DNA of 60,220 nt from a virus, in IMG/VR virus record IMGVR_UViG_3300045988_066950. One strand, written 5' to 3'. The notes below the pieces were generated by a model that saw nothing but the letters and a program-made list of their open reading frames with translations, was not told the DNA's origin and ran no database searches. A program made the translations under genes and the position numbers. Shown here piece after piece: positions 31,992 to 60,220 of this stretch (positions are counted from its first letter, which is position 1; every line of letters starts with the position of its first letter).

Positions 31992-33363
31992 GTCTAAATT
32001 CCTCCCATGCAGGTAGGCGCATAGCCGTCTGCGGTTCATAGGGCGTTGTCAGGCGGCAGGTGCTTTGCAACTGCTTTTTGACGATCTCGCGGGTCTGTTC
32101 GCCCATTGCGGCCCGCATTTTATCGCAATCGGCTTGCTTGCGCTCGATATTGGCCTTGACCGCGCCCTCGCGGGCACTGATAACGATGTACACATCCACC
32201 GGCTCAGACTGCCCAAAACGCCAACAGCGGCGCACAGCCTGATAATATTGCTCATAACTGTCAGACAAACCGACAAAAATCATCTTGTGGCAGTTCTGCC
32301 AGTTCATGCCGAATCCGGCAATAGAGGGCTTTGTGACGAGCGCCCGGTTAAAGCCCATCGAAAAGCCCAGCAGGCGGGAACTTTTCAGCGCGGCCCTATC
32401 ACTGCCCTTGACCTCTACCGCATCGGGGATGCCGTGCGCCAGTGCTTCACTCTCCGAATTGAGGTCGCACCACACGAGCCACTGTTCACCAGGGTCGCCA
32501 TTCACCAGATCGGCCACCGCTTGACACCGTTCTGCGAGTGTAGCCCGTCTGGCCTCCCGCCGCTGCGTCAGCGTCATGCTCTCGGTAATCGGTGCATCTC
32601 CGTCCACGATGACCTCATGCACCCTCAGCGGCGGGAGGTCGTACCCCGGCAGGTCATAGCCGAGGTCTGCGGGACTGTTCATAACCACAGCCCAACTACC
32701 CAGCCATTGCCAGAAAACATCCTCAGCGTGACCTTTGAGCCGCCATTTGGAGGTCTGCCCGCCATCATGGACAAAGAACATAGACAGCATCTCAGAGTAG
32801 GACATTATGCCCAAAAATTCCGCGTGATTGCCAAGCTCCATAAAGTCATTGGGCGCGGGGGTGGCGGTGCAGGCCAGCCTGAACGGCGTATCCGAGAAAA
32901 AGTCGATGATCTGATTACGCACCTTGCCCGTAAAGGATTTCAGGATGCTGGATTCATCCAGCACTACGGCAGAGAAATGCACCCCGGCGAATTTGTCCAG
33001 TTTTTCATAGTTGGTAATGTTCACACCGGGCTGAATATCATCGGCGGTTTCGCAGAGGGTGACGGGCACTCCGAATTTCAAGCCTTCGCCCACGGTCTGA
33101 GGGGAAACGGTAAGCGGCGCCACAATGAGGGCATTTCCACCTGTATGCACACACACCCGATGCGCCCATTCAAGCTGCATCGCGGTCTTGCCAAGGCCGC
33201 AATCGGCAAAAATAGCGGCGCGGCCCTTTGCCAGCGCCCACCGCACGATGTCTTTTTGAAAGTCGTACAGCTTGTCGTTGAGATCGTTCACGGTCAGAAC
33301 GATGCTGTCGGTATGTACTGCCCGCTCCGACTTGTGAACAACGAAATCAGAATAATTTTCCAT
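31978..33363 (-). CDS. SNF2/DEAD-like helicase associated with the methyltransferases
   Basis: DCGLGKT, VLDESS, and a C-terminal RRCWRFGQ motif. Confidence 0.8.
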   Translation of the reverse strand: MENYSDFVVHKSERAVHTDSIVLTVNDLNDKLYDFQKDIVRWALAKGRAAIFADCGLGKTAMQLEWAHRVCVHTGGNALIVAPLTVSPQTVGEGLKFGVPVTLCETADDIQPGVNITNYEKLDKFAGVHFSAVVLDESSILKSFTGKVRNQIIDFFSDTPFRLACTATPAPNDFMELGNHAEFLGIMSYSEMLSMFFVHDGGQTSKWRLKGHAEDVFWQWLGSWAVVMNSPADLGYDLPGYDLPPLRVHEVIVDGDAPITESMTLTQRREARRATLAERCQAVADLVNGDPGEQWLVWCDLNSESEALAHGIPDAVEVKGSDRAALKSSRLLGFSMGFNRALVTKPSIAGFGMNWQNCHKMIFVGLSDSYEQYYQAVRRCWRFGQSEPVDVYIVISAREGAVKANIERKQADCDKMRAAMGEQTREIVKKQLQSTCRLTTPYEPQTAMRLPAWEEFRHECA

Positions 33364-35155
33364 CCTCTACCTCCGGGAACCATTTCTTCGTAACCGCGAT
33401 GGGAAACTCCTCAATCTCCGAGGCCCAAACGCACAACTCTTTGCGCCCAGCGTGTAGCTGTGCCCACACATACGGGAATCCACCAATACCATCAAACAAA
33501 CTGCCGAGGGTAGCGTCATCCGGCAGACGGTCAGAGATGCCGCCGAGAACGTAGTACCACTGCGGCAGGGCGATGGAGTTACCCAGTGCTTTATATCGGG
33601 GCGTGTCAGCGTCCTTATGGGTCTTGCCCTTGCTGTCTATCCAGCTACCAAGGTCTGTCCATCCATCGGGATAGCCCTGCAGGCGCTCACACTCGGTAGG
33701 GGTCAGCCGCCTCACAATCCAGCGGATGATTTTTTCAATCACCGATGGCCCTGTGTTAGCTCCGCCCTGCCCGGTAGCAGTCGTCAGAGTTACAGCCCTA
33801 TCGCCCGTTAGAGTACCGTTATACAGGTCTGCACCTACGGGCTGGGCGATTACTCTACCGAGAGAATCTGCCCTGCCGGGACCCTTATAATCGCGGGCCA
33901 GTAGCGCACCTGCTACGGTATCGCCCTGTAATGTGATGGCTGTATAGTCGGTGACGCGGCTGTTGTGGTCGCCGGTCATGGTAGGAGATGTGATGCCGTC
34001 GCCGTTGCCCCGCGCATCATAGATAAGCGGCTCGGCTACGGGATTGATGTAGTTGAGGCTTTGCCCGCCGTTGTCTTTTGCCTGCAAGGTTGCGGACAGT
34101 TCTTCATTGGCGGTCATATTGCGGCAGTCAAGCGCGAACGCAACGGCAGGGCGATCAATCGTATTCAGTGTGTAACAGACATCCTCTTTGACACCGGTGC
34201 CGTTTGCACCCGCCGTGTCTGCGCGGTCAATCGTGTTGCCCTGAATACAGAATGTCGGTTCGACAATAGCGATGCCGCCCTGATTCTTTGCGGGGTCAGG
34301 CGGTTCGGCCACAAAAAGCGTCTGATCTTGCAAGGTGGAGAGGGTGGCGCTCTTTTCGGTCTGCACCAACGCACCCTTGCCGCCGCCATCACACCCGGAA
34401 CGGATTTTTAAGGTGTATGCTTTGGCAATATCAGGACAACAGACCCCATGCTCATGACCCTCCTGCAATGTATAGGCGGCATCACCCGCCTGCCCAACGC
34501 CAAGACCCGTTCTCTCTCCGAGAGATTTGTGACGGGTCGCAATTTGGAGGTTTACGGGGATGGCATCTGTGCAATCTGCTGTTCCAGCGCCGTTTTCAAC
34601 AGCTCCGGCAGCTGCTTGCCCCGGCGTGATGCCCGGCGCAAAATGCCCTCGCAGGCTCTCCGGCTCAAATAGTATTTCTCCGGCACGCCCACCTGTAAGA
34701 TCGAGGACAAGCGAGATGCGCAGGCGACGTTGGGGAACGCCCCAGTGCTGGGCATCCATAGTTCGCCACGCCAGCGAGTAGTGGTCTGCCAGAATTGCCC
34801 CGGCGCGGGGCCATTTGATCCCCCCCCGTGCGTTCGTAGGTCTAGGAATAACAGCGTTGGGGTCGATGACCCGACAGAGGCTTTGGAGGACGGCATGAAA
34901 ATCTTCTCCTTTGTTTGAACTGAACGCGCCGGAAACATTCTCCCAGACAGCGTATTTGGGGTACGCACCAAAAGTGGCGTATCTCATTTCGCGGATGATG
35001 CGGACAGCCTCAGAGAACAGTCCAGAGCGTTCTCCGGCCATACCGGCCCTTTTTCCGGCGATGGAAAGGTCTTGACACGGCGATCCGAACGTGATGACAT
35101 CCACGGGCGGGATGGTGTACCCGCTCATTTTCGTAATGTCGCCAAGATGTACCAT
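33347..35155 (-). CDS. C5-cytosine DNA methyltransferase, circularly permuted motif order, very long variable region
   Basis: Motif order is GDIT (III), GSPCQDLS (IV), WENV (VI), QRRLR (VIII), about 330 aa of variable region, RRLTPTECERLQGYP (IX), GNSIALP (X), LFDGIGGF (I), ASEIEE (II). ATG preceded by GAGGAGG. Confidence 0.8.
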   Translation of the reverse strand: MVHLGDITKMSGYTIPPVDVITFGSPCQDLSIAGKRAGMAGERSGLFSEAVRIIREMRYATFGAYPKYAVWENVSGAFSSNKGEDFHAVLQSLCRVIDPNAVIPRPTNARGGIKWPRAGAILADHYSLAWRTMDAQHWGVPQRRLRISLVLDLTGGRAGEILFEPESLRGHFAPGITPGQAAAGAVENGAGTADCTDAIPVNLQIATRHKSLGERTGLGVGQAGDAAYTLQEGHEHGVCCPDIAKAYTLKIRSGCDGGGKGALVQTEKSATLSTLQDQTLFVAEPPDPAKNQGGIAIVEPTFCIQGNTIDRADTAGANGTGVKEDVCYTLNTIDRPAVAFALDCRNMTANEELSATLQAKDNGGQSLNYINPVAEPLIYDARGNGDGITSPTMTGDHNSRVTDYTAITLQGDTVAGALLARDYKGPGRADSLGRVIAQPVGADLYNGTLTGDRAVTLTTATGQGGANTGPSVIEKIIRWIVRRLTPTECERLQGYPDGWTDLGSWIDSKGKTHKDADTPRYKALGNSIALPQWYYVLGGISDRLPDDATLGSLFDGIGGFPYVWAQLHAGRKELCVWASEIEEFPIAVTKKWFPEVEDGKLF

Positions 35156-35157
35156 CG

Positions 35158-35640
35158 TCAAGCCTCCTCAGTAACAGTGGCAGCGTGTGTAGCCATCAGT
35201 GCTTTGCGCTCGGCCATCAAAATCTGCCCCAGCTTATTCAGCCCCTTAGTTCCCTCACTACGGCAGCGGGCGCATCCGCAAACGCCCCAGTAGTTGTCGT
35301 TCCACGTGTTACCCTCGATCAACTCGGCATCGCCAGTGTCGATAAGGGCCTGTGCAAGGGCGGGATTTTGGGAAAATTTCGCATGGATGACATCAGCCAT
35401 GATGCTGTCACGCTCTTTCTCCCATCCCTTGCGCAGTTTGATTTTGCGCCCGATTGCTTTCGCCACATTGGGCGGGACAGTGCAGAACGCCGCGCGGTCA
35501 ATCGGGACATTGCATTTTGCTGCCTGAAAAGCAGCCTCAGCACTCCGATAAGTCAACCCATCAATAGTGACGGGGCAGGCGCAGTAGTTGCTCAAAAAGT
35601 GGTATTCGCCGGTAAAGGCGGTGATTTGTACCTTGCTCAT
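35158..35640 (-). CDS. NADAR (YbiA/DUF1768) domain protein
   Basis: FTGEYHFLSNY...YRSAEAAFQAAK...NYWG pattern. Confidence 0.7.
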   Translation of the reverse strand: MSKVQITAFTGEYHFLSNYCACPVTIDGLTYRSAEAAFQAAKCNVPIDRAAFCTVPPNVAKAIGRKIKLRKGWEKERDSIMADVIHAKFSQNPALAQALIDTGDAELIEGNTWNDNYWGVCGCARCRSEGTKGLNKLGQILMAERKALMATHAATVTEEA

Positions 35641-38398: not shown

Positions 38399-38419
38399 CC
38401 GCGCCCACAAGGGGCGCGG
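38399..38419 (-). promoter_or_regulatory. GC hairpin downstream of VR2 (CCGCGCCC / GGGCGCGG, 5-nt loop)
   Basis: Identical sequence to 57533-57553. Lies 23 nt beyond VR2. Confidence 0.7.
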
Positions 38420-38425
38420 GGATAA

Positions 38426-39028
38426 TTACGATTTACGGATACGGAAGCAGACGGGCGCGGACAGCCACGTGCTGGAGGCATAGGTGCCGTGCGCATAGCC
38501 GGTGCTGTTCACACCGCAGAAGCCGGAGGAGCTGCCGGAGCGCTGAGAAGATGTCCAATAGGCAGTTGAATCACCGCCGTGTTCGTCCATCTTCATGCGA
38601 TGGCGGCGATCTTTGTACCAATCCATCTGCTTGTACAGCCCGTCGTCGCCGAGAACAGCATCCCCGCTGAACAGTTCAGACGCGGCGGGCAGAAATAAGC
38701 GCTCAAGGCGGCATACCTTTTTGCCGTCGATGGTGTGCTTGCGCTCAGTATCAACGATGGCCTCGCGCAGTTCATCGGGCATCAGATGATCGATGCGGTC
38801 AAGCCATTTTTCGACCTTGCCGTAGGTCATGTCGTCACCGAGGCAATCCACAGAATCAAAGCGGATGGCCTTATCGTCGATGTCAGTGACGGCGCACTCA
38901 ATGTGACGGCCATCCAGCAGGTCAAAGGCCAGTGCATCGCCAATATGCGGGTTGGAAGTGATTTCTTTCAGGGCAGTACCGATGTCAATATCGGTGCAGA
39001 CGGTTTTACGCAAAGTTGCAAAGCTCAT
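38426..39028 (-). CDS. DGR target protein 2 (small; VR-encoded C-terminus ...YWTSS...WLSAPVCFRIRKS)
   Basis: Start MSFATLRK. VR2 forms the 3' end. Located in the early/replication operon. Confidence 0.75.
   Translation of the reverse strand: MSFATLRKTVCTDIDIGTALKEITSNPHIGDALAFDLLDGRHIECAVTDIDDKAIRFDSVDCLGDDMTYGKVEKWLDRIDHLMPDELREAIVDTERKHTIDGKKVCRLERLFLPAASELFSGDAVLGDDGLYKQMDWYKDRRHRMKMDEHGGDSTAYWTSSQRSGSSSGFCGVNSTGYAHGTYASSTWLSAPVCFRIRKS
38442..38542 (-). repeat. DGR variable repeat VR2 (remote)
   Basis: Aligns to TR 56724-56824. By manual alignment all of about 16 mismatches fall at TR T (A on the coding strand). Confidence 0.85.
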
Positions 39029-39078
39029 TTGTAGGTTCCTTTCCTTTATGTACGGGCTTGTATTTCCTCTTGATTTCT

Positions 39079-39138
39079 GCCCCGGAGCCGGGGTTGAACC
39101 GACATCGCGCGCTTGCTCTACCATTGAGCTATCCGAGT
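39079..39138 (-). other. tRNA-like remnant lacking an anticodon arm
   Basis: Acceptor ACTCGGA/TCCGGGG, D arm GCTC-AATGGTA-GAGC, T arm GTCGG-TTCAACC-CCGGC. Only about 10 nt sit where the anticodon arm should be, and no CCA is encoded. Confidence 0.3.
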
Positions 39139-39271
39139 ACATGAGAGGAGGGGCCGTAGCCCCTCCCGGTATAGAAAGAGGTGGATGGTTATTTAATTAC
39201 CAGTACCCTGCCGAAAAGCGTGGTAGCTGGGTCGAACAGGGCGTCACGCACCCTGTGAGGGAGTGTTTCGA

Positions 39272-41106: not shown

Positions 41107-42318
41107 TTAAACCCCTCCAAAATCAGCGGCGGCACTGTTGTACGGTTCGCGCTTGTCAGATTCGTCAACCAACGTCGGTTTGCCCATCGGGCGGTCAATC
41201 TGGTCAGCCAGCAGATCAGCAAACTTTTTCTTGCCGAGCCGCTTTTCCAGTTCGGACAGGGAAACGGGCTTGCGGTCATAGAGCATAGCCTCATCATACC
41301 CAGCCTTGATGAGCGTCTGGAACGCGGCATCGGTATCGCGGAACGCGCGAACGCTGCGGCCTGCAACGACTTTCCAGCCGGGAATTTCGCCGCCGTCGAG
41401 AATTGTCTGCTGTGCATAGGCTTTCAGATCGTCATACCAGCTCACCAAAAACTGGCCGCGCGTCAGCAGTTGACCGATTTCTTCATCGGTCAGCGCTTTT
41501 TGCAGGCCCATCGCGCGGCGCGTGATGTTGTCTTTCGGTTCATCGGCGGGGACGCGACCCATAGGTACACACGCGGCGAAATCTTCCAGCGCCGTGTTGA
41601 TGTTGGCACGGGCGCGGCATTTTGCCTTGCCCCGGCAGAACTTGCAGTGCTCGCCGGGAACAAATATGCCGGGGCCGTTGAACGCCTCCACAGCGAGGGG
41701 ATGGATTTCGGCGCCCCACGCCAACAGGTCATCCACGGTCATCTCATCCTCGGACGGGTCGGCGCTGATTCGGGGCTGGATAATGGTCATGCGCACCTTT
41801 TTGATGGTGTCACCGTACAAGGGCCGGTACCTTGCAAGGGCACCGAGGGCGTAAAGCCGCATCTGCGGATTGCCCACGGCATCCACACGGACACCCTTGC
41901 CGTGTTTGTAATCAAAAATGTTCAGCGTGTCATCGCCGATCATCACGCAATCACAAGTACCGAAACCATCCGGCACGACATCAGAAAAGTCCACCTGCTG
42001 CTCCGTCATAATCGCCGGAGGATTGGTGTAGCCCAGCGCCTTTTCCATAATCCAGTCGCAGTAAACCTTGGCACAGGTCAACATTTCGGGCTGATAGAGC
42101 TTGTTCCGCTGCAGAGGGCGCAGCTCCTCAGCCATCGCGTCCACATCGCCGCGAGTTTTGACGAACAGTTCACAAATGCTATGCGCCAGTGTACCCTCCT
42201 CGGCATAGACGCTCGTACTGACCGGGAATTGCGCCTCAAACGTGGGCGACGCGGTACAGACCAGATAGCGGTGCGCATTGGACGCGCCGCACTTGGCATG
42301 AATCTCAGGGCTTGCCAT
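41107..42318 (-). CDS. DUF2800-like PD-(D/E)XK (Cas4-like) nuclease
   Basis: Start MASPEIHAKCGASNAHRYLVC. Contains CDCVMIGDDTLNIFDYKHGKG and C-terminal Cys residues. Confidence 0.65.
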   Translation of the reverse strand: MASPEIHAKCGASNAHRYLVCTASPTFEAQFPVSTSVYAEEGTLAHSICELFVKTRGDVDAMAEELRPLQRNKLYQPEMLTCAKVYCDWIMEKALGYTNPPAIMTEQQVDFSDVVPDGFGTCDCVMIGDDTLNIFDYKHGKGVRVDAVGNPQMRLYALGALARYRPLYGDTIKKVRMTIIQPRISADPSEDEMTVDDLLAWGAEIHPLAVEAFNGPGIFVPGEHCKFCRGKAKCRARANINTALEDFAACVPMGRVPADEPKDNITRRAMGLQKALTDEEIGQLLTRGQFLVSWYDDLKAYAQQTILDGGEIPGWKVVAGRSVRAFRDTDAAFQTLIKAGYDEAMLYDRKPVSLSELEKRLGKKKFADLLADQIDRPMGKPTLVDESDKREPYNSAAADFGGV

Positions 42319-42478
42319 TTGCTTTCTCCTTTTCTTGCTGTTGATAAAAAGCGTGAAGAACACTTTTCGCCGCGAGAATCCCATCCATATACCCCTCGGC
42401 GCGTTTTCCGCGGTGTGGGTTGTTCTGGGCCTTACGAGTTAGCAACGCCTGCATGGCGTCATATTCCCACGCCGTCAT
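42305..42478 (-). CDS. small hypothetical protein
   Basis: 57 aa from MTAWEYDAM. Confidence 0.35.
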   Translation of the reverse strand: MTAWEYDAMQALLTRKAQNNPHRGKRAEGYMDGILAAKSVLHAFYQQQEKEKANGKP

Positions 42479-43889: not shown

Positions 43890-43934
43890 ATTATATAAAG
43901 AAAACTTTATACATTACGCTATATGGAGGTTTTT

Positions 43935-44732
43935 ATGGATTCCATAGGTGATAGAATTAGGTTGTGCAGGAAGCGTCTCGGCATTTCGCAGGCTGAACTT
44001 GCTGAAACAGTCGGATATGGAACGCGCTCAACCATTGCAAAGATTGAAGCGGGCAAAATTGACCCCTATCACAGTAAAATAGTTGCACTTGCCCATGCAT
44101 TAAAAACCACGCCAGAGTATTTAATCGGGTGGACGACAGATGATTATAATTGGGATGATGACCCAGATAATCGGCTTGACACTATTCCTAATGCGATCCT
44201 TAATGAATTGACGGAAAAACATCATGGTAACAGTCGCCTCGTGTGGGAGGATTGGCAGGCGATGGAGCGCGACGCGGCACATGAGGCCACAAAAGGCAAA
44301 GCCGTCCCTAAAGGGTTCATCCCGTTACCCGATACAAAGGCCATTCCCGTGATTGGTAATATTGCCTGCGGCACTCCGATTCTGGCACAAGAAAACATAG
44401 AACGATATATAGGTGTATCTTCGCTATGGAAAGCCGACTTTGCTTTAGTATGCAAGGGTGATTCGATGTCCCCGACAATTCAAGACGGCGATTTGGTCTG
44501 CATCCGCTCTCAGCCTAACGTCGAAAACGGGCAGATAGCGGCGGTGCTGATTGACGATGAAGCAACGCTTAAACATTTTTACCGGCATGATGACACTGTG
44601 ATTTTACAGCCAGAAAACCCTCGGTTTACGCCGATGACCTACACGAAAGAAGAAATAAACGATTTGCGCATCGAAGGTGTGGCTGTAGGTATCTGTCGGG
44701 GCTTGCCAGACTATGGCCCGGAGGGGATTTAA
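43935..44732 (+). CDS. CI/LexA-like repressor (XRE HTH plus S24 peptidase)
   Basis: N-terminal HTH. C-terminal GDSMSPTI Ser nucleophile and a downstream Lys (ATLKHF). GGAGG RBS before the second ATG. Confidence 0.85.
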   Translation: MDSIGDRIRLCRKRLGISQAELAETVGYGTRSTIAKIEAGKIDPYHSKIVALAHALKTTPEYLIGWTTDDYNWDDDPDNRLDTIPNAILNELTEKHHGNSRLVWEDWQAMERDAAHEATKGKAVPKGFIPLPDTKAIPVIGNIACGTPILAQENIERYIGVSSLWKADFALVCKGDSMSPTIQDGDLVCIRSQPNVENGQIAAVLIDDEATLKHFYRHDDTVILQPENPRFTPMTYTKEEINDLRIEGVAVGICRGLPDYGPEGI

Positions 44733-44733
44733 C

Positions 44734-45177
44734 ATGATGGCTTTTATTACATTGATTTTGACAATCGGTCTGTATATGCTTTTAGGATTTGCGGCACTCA
44801 TCATCGCATTTGTCATTGCGTTGCTGTGCGCTCTCGGCTATCACGCGCAAAAGAATAAGGTCAAACAGACCCAGCCATCAAAGAGGGTCTGCCCAATGTG
44901 CAGCAGCCCCAAGGTGCGGTTTAAGCATGTAGTGAACGGTACGACGTCGACAGGCGGCGCAACGACCGTCTCGGGCATTAGTCTCGCATCTGGTGATACA
45001 AAGATTCATCGCCGTAACATCGCGTACTGCGAGAATTGCGGATACAGCTTTGACTTTACCACGCAGGATGACCTCAATGCCCAATATAATAAACTGAACA
45101 CAAACGAGGGATGCGCCATTTTGGTGGCGGTCATTCTCGGCGTTATTCTTATAACAATTTGGTTTTACAGCCATTAA
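44734..45177 (+). CDS. membrane protein with an internal zinc ribbon (candidate superinfection-exclusion factor)
   Basis: TM helices at both ends. Contains CPMCSS...CENCG. Lies between the repressor and the integrase. Confidence 0.4.
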   Translation: MMAFITLILTIGLYMLLGFAALIIAFVIALLCALGYHAQKNKVKQTQPSKRVCPMCSSPKVRFKHVVNGTTSTGGATTVSGISLASGDTKIHRRNIAYCENCGYSFDFTTQDDLNAQYNKLNTNEGCAILVAVILGVILITIWFYSH

Positions 45178-45220
45178 ACGCAAATTTGAGGCCGTTTTCG
45201 TTAAATAAGGGGGTGATAGT

Positions 45221-46810
45221 TTGAGTTCAGTTGATAAAATCGCCGTCGTTTACGCGCGGTATTCGTCCCACGGTCAGACCGAGCAATCTATCGAGGGGCA
45301 GATTGCCGCAGCGCAGAAGTATGCAGAACAGCATGGCTACACAATCATCCATATCTATGCCGATCGGGCAATGACCGGGCGCAACGATGACCGAGAAGAA
45401 TTTCAAAGGATGCTGTCCGATACCGCAACGCATCAATTCGGGGTTATCCTATTGTGGAAAATTGACCGATTTGGTCGTAACCGCGAAGAAATCGCCTTTA
45501 ACCGTTACCGCTGTAAAAAGAATGGGGTCAGGGTGGAGCGCGTTGCAGAGGATGTGCCAGACGGCCCAGAGGGCGTTATTCTGGATTCCGTGCTTGAGGG
45601 CATGGCAGAATACTACTCGCTTCAACTGGCGCAGAATGTGCGCCGGGGCCAGCGCGAGAGTGCCAAGAAATCCCAAACCGTGGGCGGCTGCAAGATTATC
45701 GGGTACAATGTCAATCCCGACACAAAACGATATGAGGTTGACCCCAAAACCGCCCCGTTTGTGACAGAGGTTTTCAAGCGGTACGCCAACGGCGAAACCA
45801 TCTCGGAAATCGTTGCATGGCTCAACGCGCAGGGGGTCAGAACGACGCGCGGCGGCGAGTTCACCGTCAACAGCCTGCACCGCTTGCTGAAAAATGAGAA
45901 GTACACCGGCGTGTACATCTTCCACGACATCCGCAATGAGGGCGGTATGCCTGCACTGATCGACCACGCCACATTCGACAAAGTGCAGGAAATGCTCAAG
46001 GTAAACCGCCGCGCCCCGGCGCGGGTATGGTCTAAGACTGAGTATCTGCTGACCGATAAGCTGTTCTGCGGCCACTGTGGCGCGATGATGGTAGGGGAGA
46101 GCGGCCACGGGCGCAACGGCACAAAGCACAACTACTATACCTGCTGGAATCGAAAAAAGAAAAAGAGCTGTGACAAAAAGCCGGTGCGGCAAGATGTCAT
46201 TGAGTCACTGGTGCTGAGGTCAATCGGCAAACTGCTAGAAAATCCGGCTACACTGGAAAACATCGCCGATCAGGTATGGGCTGCCTATGAGCGTAGCGAT
46301 ACATCCGGCGATACCATCAAGGCACTGGATAAGCAAATAGCCGATGTGAATAAGGCGCTCTCCAATGTGATGAAAGCCATCGAAATGGGCATCATCAATG
46401 AGATGACGAAAACCCGCATGGATGAACTGACAGACCAAAAACAAGCCCTCAGTGCAGCCCGCGCTGAGGCGGGACTGGCTGAGGGCTTTAAGCTCACACG
46501 GGATATGATTCTGTTTTTCCTACAAGAGATAGCCGCGCTGGATATGGCAGACCGTGATAGCCAAAAGCGGCTGATTAAGACATTTGTCAACGCCATCTAT
46601 TTGTACGACGATCACTTTGACATTGCATTTAATTATACCGATAATGGTAAGGTGGTCGTGCGGATGCAAGAAATCAACGATGCTGCGTGTGGTGAAGTGT
46701 TCGGACGCTGTGCGCAAAGTCCTGCCATTGTACAGACATCCGAACCGCTGATAACGATAGTTGTTAGCTGTTCGGTGTTTGTTTTTTCAGTAAAAATGCC
46801 GGAGGCGTAA
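45221..46810 (+). CDS. int: large serine recombinase (integrase)
   Basis: VVYARYSSHGQ catalytic Ser region, a recombinase domain, and Cys clusters (CGHCG...YYTC). Confidence 0.9.
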   Translation: MSSVDKIAVVYARYSSHGQTEQSIEGQIAAAQKYAEQHGYTIIHIYADRAMTGRNDDREEFQRMLSDTATHQFGVILLWKIDRFGRNREEIAFNRYRCKKNGVRVERVAEDVPDGPEGVILDSVLEGMAEYYSLQLAQNVRRGQRESAKKSQTVGGCKIIGYNVNPDTKRYEVDPKTAPFVTEVFKRYANGETISEIVAWLNAQGVRTTRGGEFTVNSLHRLLKNEKYTGVYIFHDIRNEGGMPALIDHATFDKVQEMLKVNRRAPARVWSKTEYLLTDKLFCGHCGAMMVGESGHGRNGTKHNYYTCWNRKKKKSCDKKPVRQDVIESLVLRSIGKLLENPATLENIADQVWAAYERSDTSGDTIKALDKQIADVNKALSNVMKAIEMGIINEMTKTRMDELTDQKQALSAARAEAGLAEGFKLTRDMILFFLQEIAALDMADRDSQKRLIKTFVNAIYLYDDHFDIAFNYTDNGKVVVRMQEINDAACGEVFGRCAQSPAIVQTSEPLITIVVSCSVFVFSVKMPEA

Positions 46811-53696: not shown

Positions 53697-54968
53697 TTAT
53701 GCCCACGAGCTCTTGTACAGCCCCGCATCCGTCAGGCCGCGGCTCTGGCACAGCAGGTAAATTGCATCCGCATCTCCCTGGCTCACCGGCCCGATGGTAA
53801 TCACTTGTAGCTTCCTTTCAGGCTTGTCCGCTGCGGGCAGGGCCTTGACCAGATGGTTCAAATCAACCTCCTCGGTGATGCCCGGCACGCCGCCCTTTGC
53901 GGTCTGGCTGTACTGGTGGATGTATCGCGGCAGGCTCGTGTCGTAGTTGGCGCGGGCGTCGGCCAGCCAGCCGATGTAGTCCTTGCACAGGCCCTCGTAG
54001 TCGATGTTTGCCGTGGCAAACGACGTAAACGTGTAGACGCCCGGCTGGTAGCCCAGCGCCGCCGCACGTACACAGAACGCTCGGGCGCAGGCCGTGCGCT
54101 GCGCCTTGGTCAGGTTGTCCGCACGGCCATCGTGGACGCCGGTCTTGGTTGTGTGTCCCCATTCGCTGTCGAAGAACAAGGGATAGCCTGTCGGGGCAAG
54201 GCTTGCGCAGAAATCAGCTTCCTCGCAGGCTTCGTCCACTGTGACCGCCTGTGAGAAGAAGTAAAAGCCGAACAGCTTCCCGCTTGCTTTCGCCCCTGCA
54301 AGGTTGGCATCGTACTGCTCGTCCTTCATCAGCTTTCCTGTGCCGTAGCCGCGATAGCCGATGCGGACAATAGCGCGGTAGGGAACTTTTGCCCAGTCAA
54401 TAGCGCCTTGATGGTGGGACACATCAATCAGCACTTCCTCGCCGCTGGGCTGTGCAGCGTCTGCGGGTTTTTCTACTGCGTGCTCACCCGGGCGGTACGT
54501 AAACACCTGGCTGCTTGCCGTGGTAAAGTCGCCGTCCAGCCACACCAGCGGATTCGTGCGGCTGCCGTTCAGAATGACTTCAAAGTGCAGGTGCGCTCCG
54601 AACACATTCCCGGTCACGCCAGAATAGCCGATAAGTTCGCCCTCTTTGACCTGCTGACCCAGCTTAACGCAATATCTGCTCAGGTGCGCGTACCGGGTCT
54701 GCAGGGGCTTTCCCTCGTAGGGCGCGTGCTTGAGTCTAACCATGTTGCCGTAGCTCTGCATCCCGGTTTTGGTATGGCCGTCCCAGTCCTGCACCTGATC
54801 CACGGTGCCGTCCTCGGCAGCGTAGACCGGCTGCGTGCTGGTATTGCCGATCTGGGTGCGCAGGTCGATGGCCCGGTGCATACTGCCGTCGTTGTAAAAC
54901 CATCCTTGTGTGACGATGTGCTGGGCCAGAGGCCACGCCAGCAGAACCTCACCATTAGACAGCCTCAT
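53697..54968 (-). CDS. endolysin: M23 peptidase plus GH25 muramidase
   Basis: N-terminal HRAIDL...GNVFGAHLHFEV (LytM/M23). Central IDVSHHQGAIDWAKV...GFYFFS (GH25). Confidence 0.8.
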   Translation of the reverse strand: MRLSNGEVLLAWPLAQHIVTQGWFYNDGSMHRAIDLRTQIGNTSTQPVYAAEDGTVDQVQDWDGHTKTGMQSYGNMVRLKHAPYEGKPLQTRYAHLSRYCVKLGQQVKEGELIGYSGVTGNVFGAHLHFEVILNGSRTNPLVWLDGDFTTASSQVFTYRPGEHAVEKPADAAQPSGEEVLIDVSHHQGAIDWAKVPYRAIVRIGYRGYGTGKLMKDEQYDANLAGAKASGKLFGFYFFSQAVTVDEACEEADFCASLAPTGYPLFFDSEWGHTTKTGVHDGRADNLTKAQRTACARAFCVRAAALGYQPGVYTFTSFATANIDYEGLCKDYIGWLADARANYDTSLPRYIHQYSQTAKGGVPGITEEVDLNHLVKALPAADKPERKLQVITIGPVSQGDADAIYLLCQSRGLTDAGLYKSSWA

Positions 54969-54972
54969 ATCC

Positions 54973-55230
54973 TCAACCCTCCTTTACCTGCGCAGCGGCC
55001 ATCTTGGCCATCTCCGCATCAAACTCTTGTGTAGCTACTGCCAGCTCCGTTTCCAGCGCGTTGATCTTGTCGCGCCATTCCTCGCGCTGCAGGCGGATAG
55101 GCTCGTACTCCTCGGCGCTCATAACGCCGTCGGCGTGTTTCAGCGCCTTATAGTCGGTATCGGTCAGCAGGCTTTTAAGGGCGGTGATTTCAGCATTGAT
55201 GGTGTTGATGCGTTCAAGAGATTTTTCCAT
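54973..55230 (-). CDS. small coiled-coil protein (XkdX-position)
   Basis: 85 aa from MEKSLERINT. Its start lies inside the 3' end of the RT ORF. Confidence 0.4.
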   Translation of the reverse strand: MEKSLERINTINAEITALKSLLTDTDYKALKHADGVMSAEEYEPIRLQREEWRDKINALETELAVATQEFDAEMAKMAAAQVKEG

Positions 55231-56432
55231 TGAATGTGCCTCGCTTTCGATTTTCGTTTTGATTTTATCTTCCACGGCATGATGCCGTAGAGCCTGTAGA
55301 ACAGCAAATCCGTACAGTGGACAGATCGGCGGGCCTGCTTTTTGATAAGTGATCCGCGCCACGACATATAGGACGTGAGAATCTGTTCCATCGTCATAAG
55401 CCCCGCCTGCAGAAAGTTGAAAAACTTCTTGATTTTGCGGCGCTCCCGGATGACGCTTTCGCGGCAAGGCTGCTGTAAAACCTTGCCGTTGGGTAACAGG
55501 GTGAATTTGGTTTTTAGGTAGGTAAAACCTCGGCGTAGCTTGACGATTTGCGTCTTTTTGGGATTCGGGATAATGCCCTTTTCAGCGAACAGCCCAAACA
55601 GCAGGCGGCGAAACTCTATCAGCAGTTCTTTCGATTTGTTGATGATGTAGGAATCGTCCATATAGCGGGCGAACCACCGCTGCCGCCATTGATCTTTGAT
55701 GGTGTGGTCGATGCTGTTTGGGTAGGCGATGGCAAAAATCTGGCTGTCCTCCGGGCCGATATACAGACCGTTTTCTTTTGTTGGCTGGCCGTATTTGATG
55801 CGTTCAAGATTCGGCGCGTCAACAAAATTTTTCGCCAGAGCATTGAGCCGCTGATCGAGGATATGGCGGTCGATCACATTGCGCTTGAGATTATCCAGAT
55901 TGATGTTGTCGAAAAAGGCGCGGTAGTCGATGAGCAGGATGTACCCGTCATTGCCGCCTGTTTCGCGGTAGAACTCATGTAGATGCACAGCGCACCGTTT
56001 GACCGCAAAGCTGATGCCCTTGCCCTCAAGGCTTGCGCCGTTGTCATAGATCAGATTGCTGGACAGAATCGGCACCAGAGCATTTGTGCAGGCAGACCGC
56101 CGCACAACGCGCTCAGAGTAGTGCAGACTGTGGATAGCCCGCTTTTTGCCGCGCTCCACAATCCCAAAATGATAAAACCCTCTGCGGGTGTCGCCACCGC
56201 GCATGAGGGTTTTGTGGATTTTGATTGAATTTTTGAAATAACGGGCATTGTATCGGGCAACGCTGGCTTTCCACATAACGCTTTTGCGGGCGTTATAGTT
56301 GGCATCGACCAGCGAGGATACATCTGCCACCCGGTCAAAATTATCGTACTGTGCTATTCGTGCGCGGTGCTTGGCCTGCCGTGCCGCCTTACGGCGCTGA
56401 TAGCGGGCCTCGTGCCGCTCTTGTGATGTCAT
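55164..56432 (-). CDS. DGR reverse transcriptase
   Basis: RYMDDSYII (YxDD box) and LYIGPEDSQIFAIAY ([LI]GxxxSQ signature of DGR RTs). The start at MTSQERHEA is uncertain; the ORF is open to 56570. Confidence 0.9.
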   Translation of the reverse strand: MTSQERHEARYQRRKAARQAKHRARIAQYDNFDRVADVSSLVDANYNARKSVMWKASVARYNARYFKNSIKIHKTLMRGGDTRRGFYHFGIVERGKKRAIHSLHYSERVVRRSACTNALVPILSSNLIYDNGASLEGKGISFAVKRCAVHLHEFYRETGGNDGYILLIDYRAFFDNINLDNLKRNVIDRHILDQRLNALAKNFVDAPNLERIKYGQPTKENGLYIGPEDSQIFAIAYPNSIDHTIKDQWRQRWFARYMDDSYIINKSKELLIEFRRLLFGLFAEKGIIPNPKKTQIVKLRRGFTYLKTKFTLLPNGKVLQQPCRESVIRERRKIKKFFNFLQAGLMTMEQILTSYMSWRGSLIKKQARRSVHCTDLLFYRLYGIMPWKIKSKRKSKARHIQWKNLLNASTPSMLKSPPLKAC

Positions 56433-56723
56433 CTCGGAATGTACCTCGCAAAGTGTTATTGTAGGGGCGCTGTTGTGTACTTCTTTGCGATAACAGCCAT
56501 GAAACCCGGTACTCGGCCATCTGCCGTGTGGCGCACGGTAGTTTAGCCTGTTGTCGCCGTTGCGGGCCATGCAAGAAGCGTCCGGCTGATCGCGTCAAGA
56601 TACCTATTTACCCGCTACTGCGGGAGGGTCGATAACTCCTTCCAATGATGATAAGGCTCGGATTTCGGTCTGCCTGTTGATTAGCCCAGCAAACCTACTT
56701 TAATACTGGCCGAGGATTCTCGT

Positions 56724-56853
56724 TGGAATCAGACGGGCGCGGACAGCCACGTGTTGGAGGCATTGTTGTTGTTCGCATTGCCGTTGTTGTTCACATTGCA
56801 GAAGTTGGAGGAGTTGCCGGAGTTAGGGGTAAGCTCCCACCAGTTGTTACGGC
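56724..56853 (-). repeat. DGR template repeat (TR)
   Basis: 130 bp. The coding-sense strand is rich in AAC (plus strand gttgttgtt). It is the only copy carrying T/A at every variable position. Confidence 0.9.
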
Positions 56854-56883
56854 TCTTTTATACAGCTATCGACCCGATGGCGG

Positions 56884-57519
56884 TCAACGGGGATAATGAT
56901 GATAGTTTATCCCTGCTGCCTGTGCGGCCATCACGCTTGAATCATTTACAGCGGGCGCCGTAGGCGGCGCATTGGGTGTGTAGGTGGCCTGCGGTGATGT
57001 CTGATACCGGGCATCTCCATTCGGTAGGGATGCTTTCGGCTTGAATTTTGCAGTGTCCGGGAATTTCGTATTATGCCGCCAGTCTTTCAACAGCGTTTCC
57101 TCACGCTCTAACAGGGTGCCAATGTAAACCAACTGCGCGGGCAGTTCCTTTTGCGGCGCAATGCCCATGTCAAGCCCGGTGTTCAGCCGGGAAAAATGAA
57201 ACTCATCCATGATGAATTGTAAGCGATCAAACAATGCCTCACAGTCGGCCACGGCCTGCGCCTGCAATTCCTTGCGGCGGTGCAAAAGCTCATGGTCGAG
57301 TTTACCGCCGCTGTACGGATAGATGCCGTTCGCGGCGATGATGTGTTCCATCATCGTATTCAGCAGATTCACGGTAGGATAAGCGAGAATGGGTCGCCAT
57401 TTCTTGGGAATATACTTTTCCTGCATAACAAAGCCGGACAGGGCGCAGCGCAGTTCCACGGCGTTCTTGTAGAACTCCATTTCAGAAATGCTACGAAATC
57501 GGGATAATACGTTACTCAT
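56884..57519 (-). CDS. avd: accessory variability determinant (Avd)-like protein
   Basis: Lies between the target gene and TR. Helical, with an IPKKWRPILAYPTVNLLNTMMEHIIAAN pattern. Longer (211 aa) than typical Avd. Confidence 0.6.
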   Translation of the reverse strand: MSNVLSRFRSISEMEFYKNAVELRCALSGFVMQEKYIPKKWRPILAYPTVNLLNTMMEHIIAANGIYPYSGGKLDHELLHRRKELQAQAVADCEALFDRLQFIMDEFHFSRLNTGLDMGIAPQKELPAQLVYIGTLLEREETLLKDWRHNTKFPDTAKFKPKASLPNGDARYQTSPQATYTPNAPPTAPAVNDSSVMAAQAAGINYHHYPR

Positions 57520-57532
57520 GGTTCACCTGATG

Positions 57533-57553
57533 CCGCGCCCACAAGGGGCGCGG
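57533..57553 (-). promoter_or_regulatory. GC hairpin downstream of VR1 (CCGCGCCC / GGGCGCGG, 5-nt loop)
   Basis: Lies 28 nt beyond VR1 and is identical to 38399-38419. Absent next to TR. Confidence 0.7.
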
Positions 57554-57570
57554 GGATATTAGTATGAGAT

Positions 57571-58674
57571 TTACGAGATTCGGAAGCAGACGGGCGCGGA
57601 CAGCCACGTGCCGGAGGCATTGGCGTAGTGCGCAAGGCCGTTGAGGCTCACATAGCAGAAGAAGGAGGAGTTGCCGGAGGAAGGGGTAAGCTCCCACCAG
57701 TTGGTACGGCCACCACCATCACCGAGGCCCTTGATACGGTTCATGTTGTGGGCAAAGATGGGGTACTGGACAAACCCGCCGTTGGGGCATCCGTTGCCGC
57801 CCCAAACAGGAGCGCCGCAGACCTCCATCTCGGTAGGCACCCACAGATTGCCGAGGTTCGTCCACGACCAGCTATTGTCGCTGTTCAGCAGACCGCTGGC
57901 CGAGTAGCGCTCACCCAGCAAGGCGCGTTTGTTGGCAATAACAGCCTTGAGTTCGGCGGGCAGGAAGTAGTATACGCCGCCCTGACTGTAATCCACCTGT
58001 TTAACGGCGGGGTCTTTGCCCGTGCCGTTGGGCACCTGCATCTTGAGGGAGTTCAGGAACGCATACAGATGAGAACACAGCCACGGGTGTTTGTCGCCCT
58101 TGCCGGTCACGGTGATGTTGTTCGTGCCAGCGGCGGGGGCTTCATCGAATGTGACGGTAAAGGTGGATGCGTCATAGGTATAGCCGGTGACCTGATTGCT
58201 GCCCACAATGATGTTGTCGATGCTGTCCATCTGTTTCGTCAGCACAAACTCGGTCTTGCTGCCATCGCCAGACAGCTTTTCCACGGGAATCAGGCCGTTG
58301 TTGAAGTTGGCGAGATTGTACTGGATATAGGTGGGCCACAGGTCTTTGGAAATAAAGTCGATGTGATGGCCGACCTGCTGATCGCCGTACTTGTAGTAGG
58401 TGTCGATGCCCGCCACGACAGCCACGATGCGGGTCTTGGCGCTGTTCGAGCAGTTGAACGGGATGTAGTCGCCCACATGGATGCCGTAGAAGTTCCCGGC
58501 CTTGATGCGGGCCTGAATCCACTTCCACACACTGGTGTAGCCCTTGATTTCCTCCGCGAACTTCAGGCTCAAATCCATGCCGGGGTAGCACTGGTCGGTG
58601 TTCATGCCGAGGAAAAAGCCCTGATCGCCGGTAGCAGGATCAAGGATGTTGTCGATAAAAACTTTGTTTGCCAT
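57571..58674 (-). CDS. DGR target protein 1 (tail-fibre-cluster receptor-binding candidate)
   Basis: 367 aa. VR1 encodes the C-terminus (...NWWELTPSSGNSSFFCYVSLNGLAHYANASGTWLSAPVCFRIS). Confidence 0.85.
   Translation of the reverse strand: MANKVFIDNILDPATGDQGFFLGMNTDQCYPGMDLSLKFAEEIKGYTSVWKWIQARIKAGNFYGIHVGDYIPFNCSNSAKTRIVAVVAGIDTYYKYGDQQVGHHIDFISKDLWPTYIQYNLANFNNGLIPVEKLSGDGSKTEFVLTKQMDSIDNIIVGSNQVTGYTYDASTFTVTFDEAPAAGTNNITVTGKGDKHPWLCSHLYAFLNSLKMQVPNGTGKDPAVKQVDYSQGGVYYFLPAELKAVIANKRALLGERYSASGLLNSDNSWSWTNLGNLWVPTEMEVCGAPVWGGNGCPNGGFVQYPIFAHNMNRIKGLGDGGGRTNWWELTPSSGNSSFFCYVSLNGLAHYANASGTWLSAPVCFRIS
57581..57710 (-). repeat. DGR variable repeat VR1
   Basis: Same length as TR. By manual alignment about 19 mismatches, all at TR T (A on the coding strand). 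Confidence 0.9.
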
Positions 58675-59312: not shown

Positions 59313-59483
59313 AAAATTGTCCTCCTATGATTTATTCCGACTTTGCAATGTTGAATTGCGCAGTGCCGTTGGAAAACTGCATCTCCACGCCGCTGACGTA
59401 AGCGGGGGAGCTGTACATCGGGCACCTGCCCGGTCTTGCTGTCCAGCCCCGTCACGCCAGCAACACCTCACCGTTTGAGAGTC

Positions 59484-59744
59484 TCATTGATCTTCCTCCT
59501 CGTACAGCGGATTTTGAATCTGCTCATTCGTTGCGTTGCCGTCCTGCACCGTTTCAGCGTCCAGCGCATCATAATACGCCTGCGCCAGCGCTTCCACCTC
59601 TGCAATGTCCGCCTCATCCAGCAGGCCGTTGTCGTAGTGCGTGTACGTCTTGTCCAACCAAAACGCAACGTCCCGCCCAGCGCCGATCTCTCGCTTGATG
59701 CTGCGCAGCGTTAAATCGTGCCGCGCTTTACTCTTGATAGCCAT
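59484..59744 (-). CDS. hypothetical acidic protein (tail-fibre cluster)
   Basis: 86-aa ORF directly after the tail-fibre stop. Confidence 0.4.
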   Translation of the reverse strand: MAIKSKARHDLTLRSIKREIGAGRDVAFWLDKTYTHYDNGLLDEADIAEVEALAQAYYDALDAETVQDGNATNEQIQNPLYEEEDQ

Positions 59745-59758
59745 GGTGATTTCTCCTT

Positions 59759-60220
59759 TCAGTTGATAGAAGCAACCGCATCTTCCAAATCGGCAATCCT
59801 CTTAATGGGGTCTGCTCGTCCCGTCACATTCGCGCTGTCGGCGTCTGTCAGCACGGTATTAACTCCTGCAAGTGCGGACAACGGCTGTGCGCCTGTCGCG
59901 GTGAAGGGCACAGGCTCTGCCAGCTTGTAAGCAATTTGTACTGGCGTGCCAGCGTCGTTCTGGGCGGCAAGGTAGGCTTTCAACGAAACAACTTCATGTC
60001 CCGCTGATATATCGGGTAGCGAGCTAGTCAGCATACTGAACATAAAATAGCGCGACGATCCGACTGTCGCAAAGCCAATTCCAGCATTCCGCCCACCCCA
60101 CACATCTTGGTTCGGAGTCTCTAAATGGCTACAAATGCCTTTTGAGTTTATAGCATCATAATCATTGATGTCGTATGTATAAAATCCTGTAATAGCAGGG
60201 TTGTGAGCGTTGATTCCCCA
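59759..60220 (-). CDS. tail fibre protein, 3' part (continuation of 110..2020)
   Basis: The frame is open to the window edge. The codon phase at 60220 matches the phase at 110. Confidence 0.8.
   Translation of the reverse strand, partial: WGINAHNPAITGFYTYDINDYDAINSKGICSHLETPNQDVWGGRNAGIGFATVGSSRYFMFSMLTSSLPDISAGHEVVSLKAYLAAQNDAGTPVQIAYKLAEPVPFTATGAQPLSALAGVNTVLTDADSANVTGRADPIKRIADLEDAVASIN

Follow-up and report, generated by a model that had tools for sequence, protein, structure and literature searches.

The described systems with which the present locus can most closely be compared are the diversity-generating retroelements (DGRs) of Bordetella phage BPP-1, the prototype, with the order mtd-avd-TR-brt, and of Roseburia intestinalis phage Shimadzu (LR596903; Cornuault et al., bioRxiv 10.1101/575076). 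In the latter, both variable repeats (VRs) have been reported and are modified, with 2% of the virion reads carrying 10-15 DGR-type mismatches. We describe here a DGR in a viral DNA of 60,220 nt, IMG/VR record IMGVR_UViG_3300045988_066950 (hereafter the window, by which the whole of this stretch is meant). Phage DGRs at the boundary between tail-fibre and lysis genes, paired targets with the domain DUF6273, and VRs remote from the cassette are already documented (PMC11792537, PMC10743442, 10.1101/575076). The two-target DGRs of the Faecalibacterium prophages Lelie and CP11 and of phages nd4 and nd12 (PMC11792537, PMC10743442) are more distant, with reverse transcriptases (RTs) ~30% identical to that of the window. 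The text of PMC11792537 contains neither "Avd" nor "accessory" and so names no accessory gene, and the tentaclin targets of nd4 and nd12 have their VR near the 5' end, unlike the targets of the window, where the VRs are at the 3' end.

We consider it very probable that the locus is an active DGR of the BPP-1 type, that it serves two targets and that it resides in a temperate, siphovirus-like phage of the human gut. Judged from its sequence, the element is real, complete and almost certainly active; all of its parts, and their arrangement, can be observed directly (Table 1). An earlier note on this DNA had already recognised a target-avd-TR-RT cassette with the architecture and mutational signature of the BPP-1 element, and this is borne out by the RT, the adenine signature, the VR at the 3' end of the target, the difference between the initiation-of-mutagenic-homing element (IMH) and its counterpart IMH*, the hairpins, and an accessory gene located between the target and the template repeat (TR). 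That reading was incomplete rather than wrong, as a second, remote target, the RT-2 RNA, the hairpins and the fixed IMH differences had gone unnoticed, and the start of the RT had been set too far upstream. Modestly new, in our view, are the assignment of RT-2, an Avd-like family that stands apart in sequence and has a tail specific to the lineage, and the fact that the small target keeps to one position among the replication genes.

The window shares with BPP-1 the order target-accessory-TR-RT, a mutagenesis that is specific for adenines and acts on AAY codons at the 3' end of a receptor-binding gene, a GC-rich IMH facing a non-identical IMH* at the TR, a GC hairpin downstream of the VR, a structured RNA that occupies the spacer from TR to RT (PMC6182149), and the RT motifs together with the equivalents of residues R74 and I181 (PMC7826257). 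The spacer RNA itself differs, being RT-10 in BPP-1 (PMC5737381) and the Rfam family RT-2 in the window. Further differences are an accessory protein that is unrecognisable as Avd by sequence, a target domain that is DUF6273-like and not of the Mtd type, and the presence of two targets, one of them remote. The hairpin is found ~4 nt from the end of the VR in BPP-1, as compared to 22-27 nt in the window.

Shimadzu has the same succession of a DUF6273 tail fibre with VR1, Avd, TR, RT-2 RNA, RT, a small conserved open reading frame (ORF) and endolysin, with the RT-2 RNA (144.9 bits) in the same place. Its orf43 is a homologue of our target 2, is located in a replication/recombination module beside Erf and SSB, and possesses its own VR2 with the same C-versus-A difference in the IMH. 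The proteins of the two phages are distant (RT 44%, Avd 30% and target 2 37% identical), and the tail type differs, as Shimadzu has genes for baseplate J and P2-I proteins and so is myovirus-like. Relative to Shimadzu, the accessory protein of the window has an additional tail of ~56 aa, the RT is 43 aa longer, the overlap with the following gene is 67 nt instead of 4 nt, and the RT-2 RNA carries a 45-nt insertion in one of its hairpins.

Table 1. Features of the DGR in the window, in order of position
Feature	Position	Strand	Description
Hairpin 2	38399..38419	-	same sequence as hairpin 1; 22 nt 3' of VR2
Target gene 2	38426..39028	-	200 aa; stand-alone DUF6273-like protein, between SSB and PolA genes
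VR2	38442..38540	-	99 nt, corresponding to TR 56724-56822; same IMH as VR1
85-aa ORF	54973..55230	-	conserved, coiled coil; 67-nt overlap with RT 3' end; may belong to the module
RT	55164..56432	-	DGR reverse transcriptase, 422 aa; ATG at 56432
RT-2 RNA	56421..56714	-	Rfam RF03077; structured spacer between TR and RT; 3' tail contains RT start codon
TR	56724..56853	-	non-coding; 35 A in 130 nt; 15 AAY triplets in target frame; last 25 nt are IMH*
Accessory gene	56884..57519	-	211 aa; Avd-like four-helix bundle (aa 13-150), predicted disordered tail (aa 157-211)
Hairpin 1	57533..57553	-	CCGCGCCC-CTTGT-GGGCGCGG; 27 nt 3' of VR1
Target gene 1	57571..58674	-	367 aa; tail-module protein, C-terminal DUF6273-like domain with VR1
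IMH of VR1	57581..57605	-	GC-rich 19-mer GGCTGTCCGCGCCCGTCTG, then C-TTCC-G
VR1	57581..57710	-	130 nt; codons 322-365 of target 1

Template repeat, variable repeats and their boundaries

The interpretation rests foremost on the relationship between the TR and VR1. The repeat finder reported a 129-nt direct repeat (56725-56853 and 57582-57710, spacing 857, 86% identity), and the pair that had been proposed from inspection, 56724-56853 as TR and 57581-57710 as VR, was recovered in this way as well as by an ungapped alignment over 130 nt (TR 56853..56724 against VR1 57710..57581 at an offset of 857). About 19 differences had been counted, all of them at TR adenines and with substitutions to all three other bases. 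Exact alignment gives precisely 19 mismatches, distributed as 7 A-to-C, 7 A-to-T and 5 A-to-G, and 19 out of 19 are at adenines of the TR, for which the probability by chance is 1.3e-13 given its adenine content. This adenine-only signature is a direct observation. The changes fall nearly always (17 of 19) in the first or second position of AAY codons in the target frame, and VR1 ends 10 nt before the stop codon of the 367-aa ORF of target 1.

A third exact copy of the 19-mer GGCTGTCCGCGCCCGTCTG occurs at 38448-38466 and marks a second VR, which differs from the TR at 16 positions, again all of them TR adenines. Its changes follow the codon pattern of VR1, in the first and second positions of AAY triplets. 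This VR2 forms the 3' end of an ORF at 38426-39142, in which gene callers begin at M39, resulting in a protein of 200 aa (38426-39028). The 238-aa form of target 2 was considered and discarded, as this exact form is absent from the protein collection. Each AAY codon (15 in VR1, 12 in VR2) can be converted to codons for any of 15 amino acids but never to a stop codon, so that the potential protein diversity amounts to up to ~1e19 for VR1 and ~5e14 for VR2.

The GC-rich 3' boundary had been described as invariant, and the 19-mer is indeed the same in TR and VR. Just 3' of the GC stretch, however, IMH and IMH* differ at two positions, with GTCTGcTTCCg in both VRs and GTCTGaTTCCa in the TR. Among the copies from relatives described below, this two-position difference is fixed in 18 VR1, 17 VR2 and 21 TR sequences, and the corresponding codons 363 and 365 of target 1 are invariant in 30 protein variants. 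Because the two differences are fixed in all copies, we interpret them as a distinction of the IMH/IMH* type. That these 3'-most A-to-C and A-to-G differences are themselves products of mutagenesis was also considered and was rejected, as they are invariant in all VR copies.

Each VR is followed by a hairpin, CCGCGCCC-CTTGT-GGGCGCGG, of which the window contains exactly two copies, one per VR, and none after the TR. Folded as DNA it has about -12 kcal/mol, with a z-score of about -3 to -3.8 (-3.8 for hairpin 1). In related loci the hairpin is present 3' of 36 out of 37 VR copies and of none of the 21 TR copies, so that the association of IMH and hairpin with the targets only is directly observed. 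Promoter and terminator scans around both targets gave results at chance level; the hairpins lack a T-tail and were not called as terminators, and therefore neither of them looks like a terminator.

Reverse transcriptase, spacer RNA, accessory protein and targets

The three cassette ORFs which had been named in the earlier note were confirmed on the minus strand (55164-56570, 468 aa; 56884-57519, 211 aa; 57571-58674, 367 aa), and both RYMDDSYII and IGPEDSQ are found in the first of these. While the ORF at 55164-56570 thus exists, its first 46 codons are non-coding, and the start of the RT had been taken 138 nt too far upstream: the alignment to the RT-2 RNA spans these 46 codons, which places the start at 56432 and not at 56570. 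The ATG at 56570 falls within a conserved RT-2 helix, while that at 56432 is located in the 3' tail of the model, and it is exactly the 422-aa protein that gene calls give in 148 blocks of the assembly collection. An RT of 468 aa was therefore rejected, its extra 46 codons being inside conserved RT-2 helices and the 422-aa form being called elsewhere.

The RT matches Pfam RVT_1 (2e-13) and phrog_1423 (1.7e-54), and its best match in the PDB is the RT of the BPP-1 DGR (bRT, 8ub7_A; E 9.5e-15). In the alignment to bRT the catalytic motifs are intact, with YMDD conserved and IGPEDSQ opposite to IGSLTSQ, and the equivalents of R74 and I181, two residues which promote adenine mutagenesis in bRT (PMC7826257), are conserved as well. 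With both a [LIV]GxxxSQ motif and a catalytic YMDD, the protein has the hallmarks of a DGR RT. The nearest annotated phage RTs are DGR RTs from phages of Clostridia, the best being that of Shimadzu (44%).

The covariance match of RT-2 is full-length and located immediately 5' of the RT start (112.6 bits compared to a gathering score of 40; E 1.9e-26). Additional copies are found in L001 (4191-4414) and in 22 of the loci L046-L070. RT-2 was described in 2017 as an orphan motif near RT genes, and in this DGR lineage its place is consistently the TR-RT spacer; in the literature that was searched, we found no paper linking RT-2 RNA to DGRs. The RT-10 motif lies in the spacer of BPP-1, and according to a speculation of Weinberg et al. 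further DGRs are served by other RT motifs (PMC5737381). For the present lineage, our data assign to RT-2 the spacer role that RT-10 has in BPP-1.

The earlier note had recognised an Avd-like helical ORF between target and TR. Support for this description comes only from the predicted fold, the gene order and the relationship to a protein annotated as Avd, and no Avd profile matched. The AlphaFold2 (AF2) model, computed from 12 sequences, has a mean predicted local distance difference test score (pLDDT) of 71, with core blocks mostly at 78-96, four long helices over aa 13-150 and a low-confidence tail over aa 157-211. Its best Foldseek superpositions are Xcc0516 (2gsc) and the Avd of BPP-1 (bAvd; 8ub7_E, 4dwl_B), with a target-normalised TM-score of ~0.8 and a probability of 1.0. 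Identity to the annotated Avd of Shimadzu is 30% (E 6e-17). A profile search retrieved 465 representative clusters of this family at 50% identity, the members of which are typically 135-155 aa long; according to predicted fold and context, the family is Avd-like, and it is distinct in sequence.

It had also been remarked that the protein is about 80 aa longer than usual. The extra length is a C-terminal tail of ~56 aa, predicted to be disordered, which is restricted to close relatives of this phage. While the core is under strong purifying selection (247 synonymous vs 16 non-synonymous differences), the tail, of which the frame is open in 16 distinct relatives, shows 37 synonymous vs 101 non-synonymous differences. 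The tail (codons 156-211; 56884-57051, minus strand) is basic (pI 9.6) and has a fast-evolving, Pro/Ala-rich middle and conserved ends. The conserved last ~60 nt of the gene abut the TR and might be constrained as part of the DGR RNA.

For target 1, there are 497 homologues, many of which have the domain PF19789 (DUF6273). The protein itself does not match the PF19789 model even at an E-value of 10 (the gathering score is 23.5 bits), while homologues that are 52-58% identical to it score 20-29 bits and thus pass or nearly pass this cut-off. Its AF2 model has a pLDDT of 77 overall and of 66-79 over the VR. The best structural matches in BFVD are DUF6273 proteins, tail fibres and receptor-binding proteins, with E-values down to 7e-12. 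A sequence search against the PDB found nothing, and the sole significant Foldseek match in the PDB is 9qa6 (E 3e-4), the N-terminal domain of which is DUF6273 (PMC12402451). DUF6273 has been related to the C-type lectin fold (PMC10743442), a relationship which Foldseek against the PDB did not reproduce here.

Target 2 scores 19.2 bits with the DUF6273 model, which is under the cut-off; with the C-terminal half of target 1 it shares 29% identity (E 2e-14). Its gene is located in the replication module, 18 kb from the cassette, where its neighbours code for an SSB of the Enc34 type and a family-A DNA polymerase, and this slot between PolA and SSB is kept in all related viral contigs.

We favour a process modelled on BPP-1 (PMC6182149, PMC7826257, bioRxiv 10.1101/2023.10.23.563531) and on Shimadzu, in which an RNA-protein complex would be formed by a transcript comprising the 3' end of the accessory gene, the TR and the RT-2 RNA, to which the 422-aa RT and the Avd-like four-helix-bundle protein would bind. 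The synthesis of cDNA from the TR would be primed from the spacer RNA, with misincorporation opposite adenines. In the homing step, the cDNA would replace the VR at the 3' end of both targets, the adjacent 367-aa tail-module protein and the 200-aa replication-module protein 18 kb away. By the same analogy, IMH and hairpin would have a role in homing, the direction from TR to VR, and never the reverse, being set by an IMH with two fixed differences from the TR copy and by a GC hairpin that is found at the VRs only.

Variation among relatives and alternative explanations

A set of 44 IMG/VR loci, found with a 23-nt IMH probe, represents the close relatives, and 18 VR1, 17 VR2 and 21 TR copies from this set were compared. 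The TR is nearly invariant (9 variants among the 21 copies), while all 18 VR1 and all 17 VR2 copies are distinct, although the sequence flanking the VRs is 91-99% identical. When each VR copy is compared to its best-matching TR, 300 mismatches at adenines are counted vs 6 elsewhere for VR1, and 219 vs 9 for VR2, i.e. 519 out of 534 mismatches are at adenines for both together. The same pattern is found at the protein level, where the hypervariable columns of 30 target-1 variants are exactly the 15 AAY codons and the high-diversity columns of 76 target-2 variants are exactly the 12 AAY codons. This natural hypervariation is directly observed, and the 90%-identity clusters of both targets comprise thousands of distinct sequences. 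The suggestion that the system is active, or has been so recently, is supported by these population data, with every VR copy distinct and the TR hardly changing.

The wider lineage was sampled with a profile of the accessory protein, which led to 25 loci in bacterial genomes and metagenome-assembled genomes (MAGs). A homologue of target 1 is located upstream of the accessory gene in all 25 loci, and an RT homologue downstream in 22, the other three ending at a contig edge. A VR/TR pair, with mismatches only or predominantly at adenines, brackets the accessory gene in 24 of the 25 loci, and the RT-2 RNA is present between TR and RT in 22 of the 25. The nearest relatives of the cassette are found in Clostridia MAGs and in a few other MAGs from gut and rumen, some labels being doubtful because of the binning of prophage contigs. 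An exact-match scan of the GTDB representative genomes with the 23-nt IMH gave no match, and megablast against the GenBank phages retrieved only one unannotated faecal contig of 7 kb.

Several points weigh against the interpretation as an active two-target DGR of the BPP-1 type. Variation between contigs reflects diversification of the lineage and not the activity of this particular copy, and it is analogy alone which suggests that RT-2 may be a primer or scaffold. The AF2 model of target 1 is moderately confident in the VR-bearing domain (pLDDT 48-79), and with Foldseek against the PDB it matched neither Mtd nor TvpA, nor was the C-type-lectin fold recovered. For the accessory protein, there is no match in Pfam (including PF05635), in NCBIfam or in PHROG, and none in the PDB, whether the single sequence or either of two profiles was used. 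Its Foldseek E-values are weak (0.2-0.4), and its core has a pI of 6.5, while bAvd is strongly basic.

This lack of profile and PDB sequence similarity to Avd leads to the alternative that survives best, namely that the 211-aa ORF is no functional counterpart of Avd but a helical protein unrelated to it, such as a fibre chaperone, which is located between target and TR by chance. A four-helix bundle is a common fold, the pI of the core is near neutral, and a Pfam scan of 57 sampled remote members of the family revealed only a single one that touches PF05635 (E 8e-4). We nevertheless consider this explanation improbable, because the best superpositions among all four-helix bundles in the PDB are with the Avd family (2gsc, 4dwl, 8ub7) and the protein is homologous to one annotated as Avd in Shimadzu. 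In addition, the gene lies between VR and TR in 24 of the 24 genome loci of sufficient length to reveal both repeats, and it adjoins a DGR RT in 22 of the 22 loci that reach far enough downstream.

Somewhat less probable still is that the element is decayed or domesticated, so that this copy, while retaining its parts, has ceased to diversify, the differences between VR and TR being fossils. It would be difficult to reconcile decay with a RT, accessory gene, TR, RT-2 RNA, IMH and hairpins that are all intact, with the excess of synonymous differences in the accessory core, with an identical 422-aa RT in 148 blocks, or with 35 out of 35 related VR copies being distinct between flanks that are 91-99% identical. 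What speaks for it is that some copies drift, as one related VR1 (L031) has a 3-nt indel and one related VR2 (L021) has 7 non-adenine mismatches.

It is extremely unlikely that the RT is that of a retron or group II intron and that the likeness of TR and VR is due to an ordinary duplicated gene fragment: the NCBIfam matches pointing in this direction are all sub-threshold (group II intron RT/maturase with 55 bits against a cut-off of 300, Drt3a, Drt3b and Drt4), and although the describers of the RT motifs thought that many might belong to retrons (PMC5737381), the RT has IGxxxSQ and not QGxxxSP (PMC7826257), its best PDB match is a DGR RT, the RNA-family scan matched RT-2 but no intron or retron RNA, the restriction of 19 mismatches to adenines has a chance probability of ~1e-13, and the repeat occurs three times, its two VR copies each forming the 3' end of a DUF6273-like gene. 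An active two-target DGR thus remains the explanation that we prefer.

Genome context and implications

The window represents a whole tailed-phage genome, which is apparently circularly permuted, with genes for terminase, portal, major head protein, a 1070-aa tape measure protein and further tail proteins; the tail module apparently runs across the window ends into the DGR block. A gene ending at 59759 (59759-60220 and 1-2038) encodes ~800 aa in close relatives and here would cross the window ends. It has an in-frame stop near 60104, despite the suggested circular permutation, and this stop may be an artefact of the assembly end.

Downstream of the cassette are the 85-aa ORF and then an endolysin gene (M23 and GH25). 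The overlap of 67 nt between the 3' end of the RT and the next gene, which had been pointed out as an oddity, is real, as the RT stops at 55164 and the next ATG is at 55230. The 85-aa ORF is not called by gene callers, yet it is 60% identical to orf25 of Shimadzu (E 1e-21), which likewise abuts the RT, it follows the RT in 6 of 25 related loci, and its frame is open in 8 distinct relatives.

A direct repeat of 35 nt (54934-54968 and 59453-59487; 83% identical) flanks a 4.5-kb block which comprises three small ORFs, target 1, the accessory gene, TR, RT-2, RT and the 85-aa ORF. In the second copy, the first 11 codons of the endolysin gene (MRLSNGEVLLA, followed by a stop) are left as a stranded duplicate, and each of the 6 differences is synonymous. 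The repeat pair looks like a scar of the modular acquisition of a block consisting of fibre and DGR genes.

On the opposite strand, a lysogeny module (43923-46810, plus strand) codes for a CI/LexA-like repressor with helix-turn-helix and S24 peptidase domains, a DUF2321-like ORF and a large serine recombinase of 529 aa. Together, the recombinase and the repressor point to a temperate phage, and the additional occurrence of the RT on contigs of 121 kb and 342 kb fits an integrated prophage. The replication module (33347-35640 and 41107-42384, both on the minus strand) additionally contains genes for a 604-aa DNA methyltransferase, a NADAR-domain protein and a DUF2800/PD-(D/E)XK nuclease.

A practical consequence of these results is that DGR-finding software which demands a match to Avd will call such cassettes incomplete, as standard Avd profiles miss this accessory family. 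As a further and speculative possibility, RT-2 RNA might be the self-priming scaffold of a large DGR clade, working with an Avd family that is distinct in sequence (465 clusters at 50% identity).

Even in distant phages (two phages with RTs that are only 44% identical), the small, remote DUF6273-like target is found at this position among the replication genes. It might be a hypervariable binding protein that is no part of the virion, is expressed early and acts inside the cell, such as a factor for counter-defence or host takeover, an idea we regard as unlikely, if somewhat less so than the alternatives weighed above. If true, the place beside SSB and recombination genes would reflect either that function or a link of cDNA homing to the machinery which handles single-stranded DNA.

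For the phage itself, the result is a fully delimited two-target DGR in a very prevalent temperate phage of the human gut, the same RT protein being present in 148 blocks of the assembly collection. The thousands of natural VR variants that exist in public data represent a good set for studying how the gut selects among receptor-binding variants.

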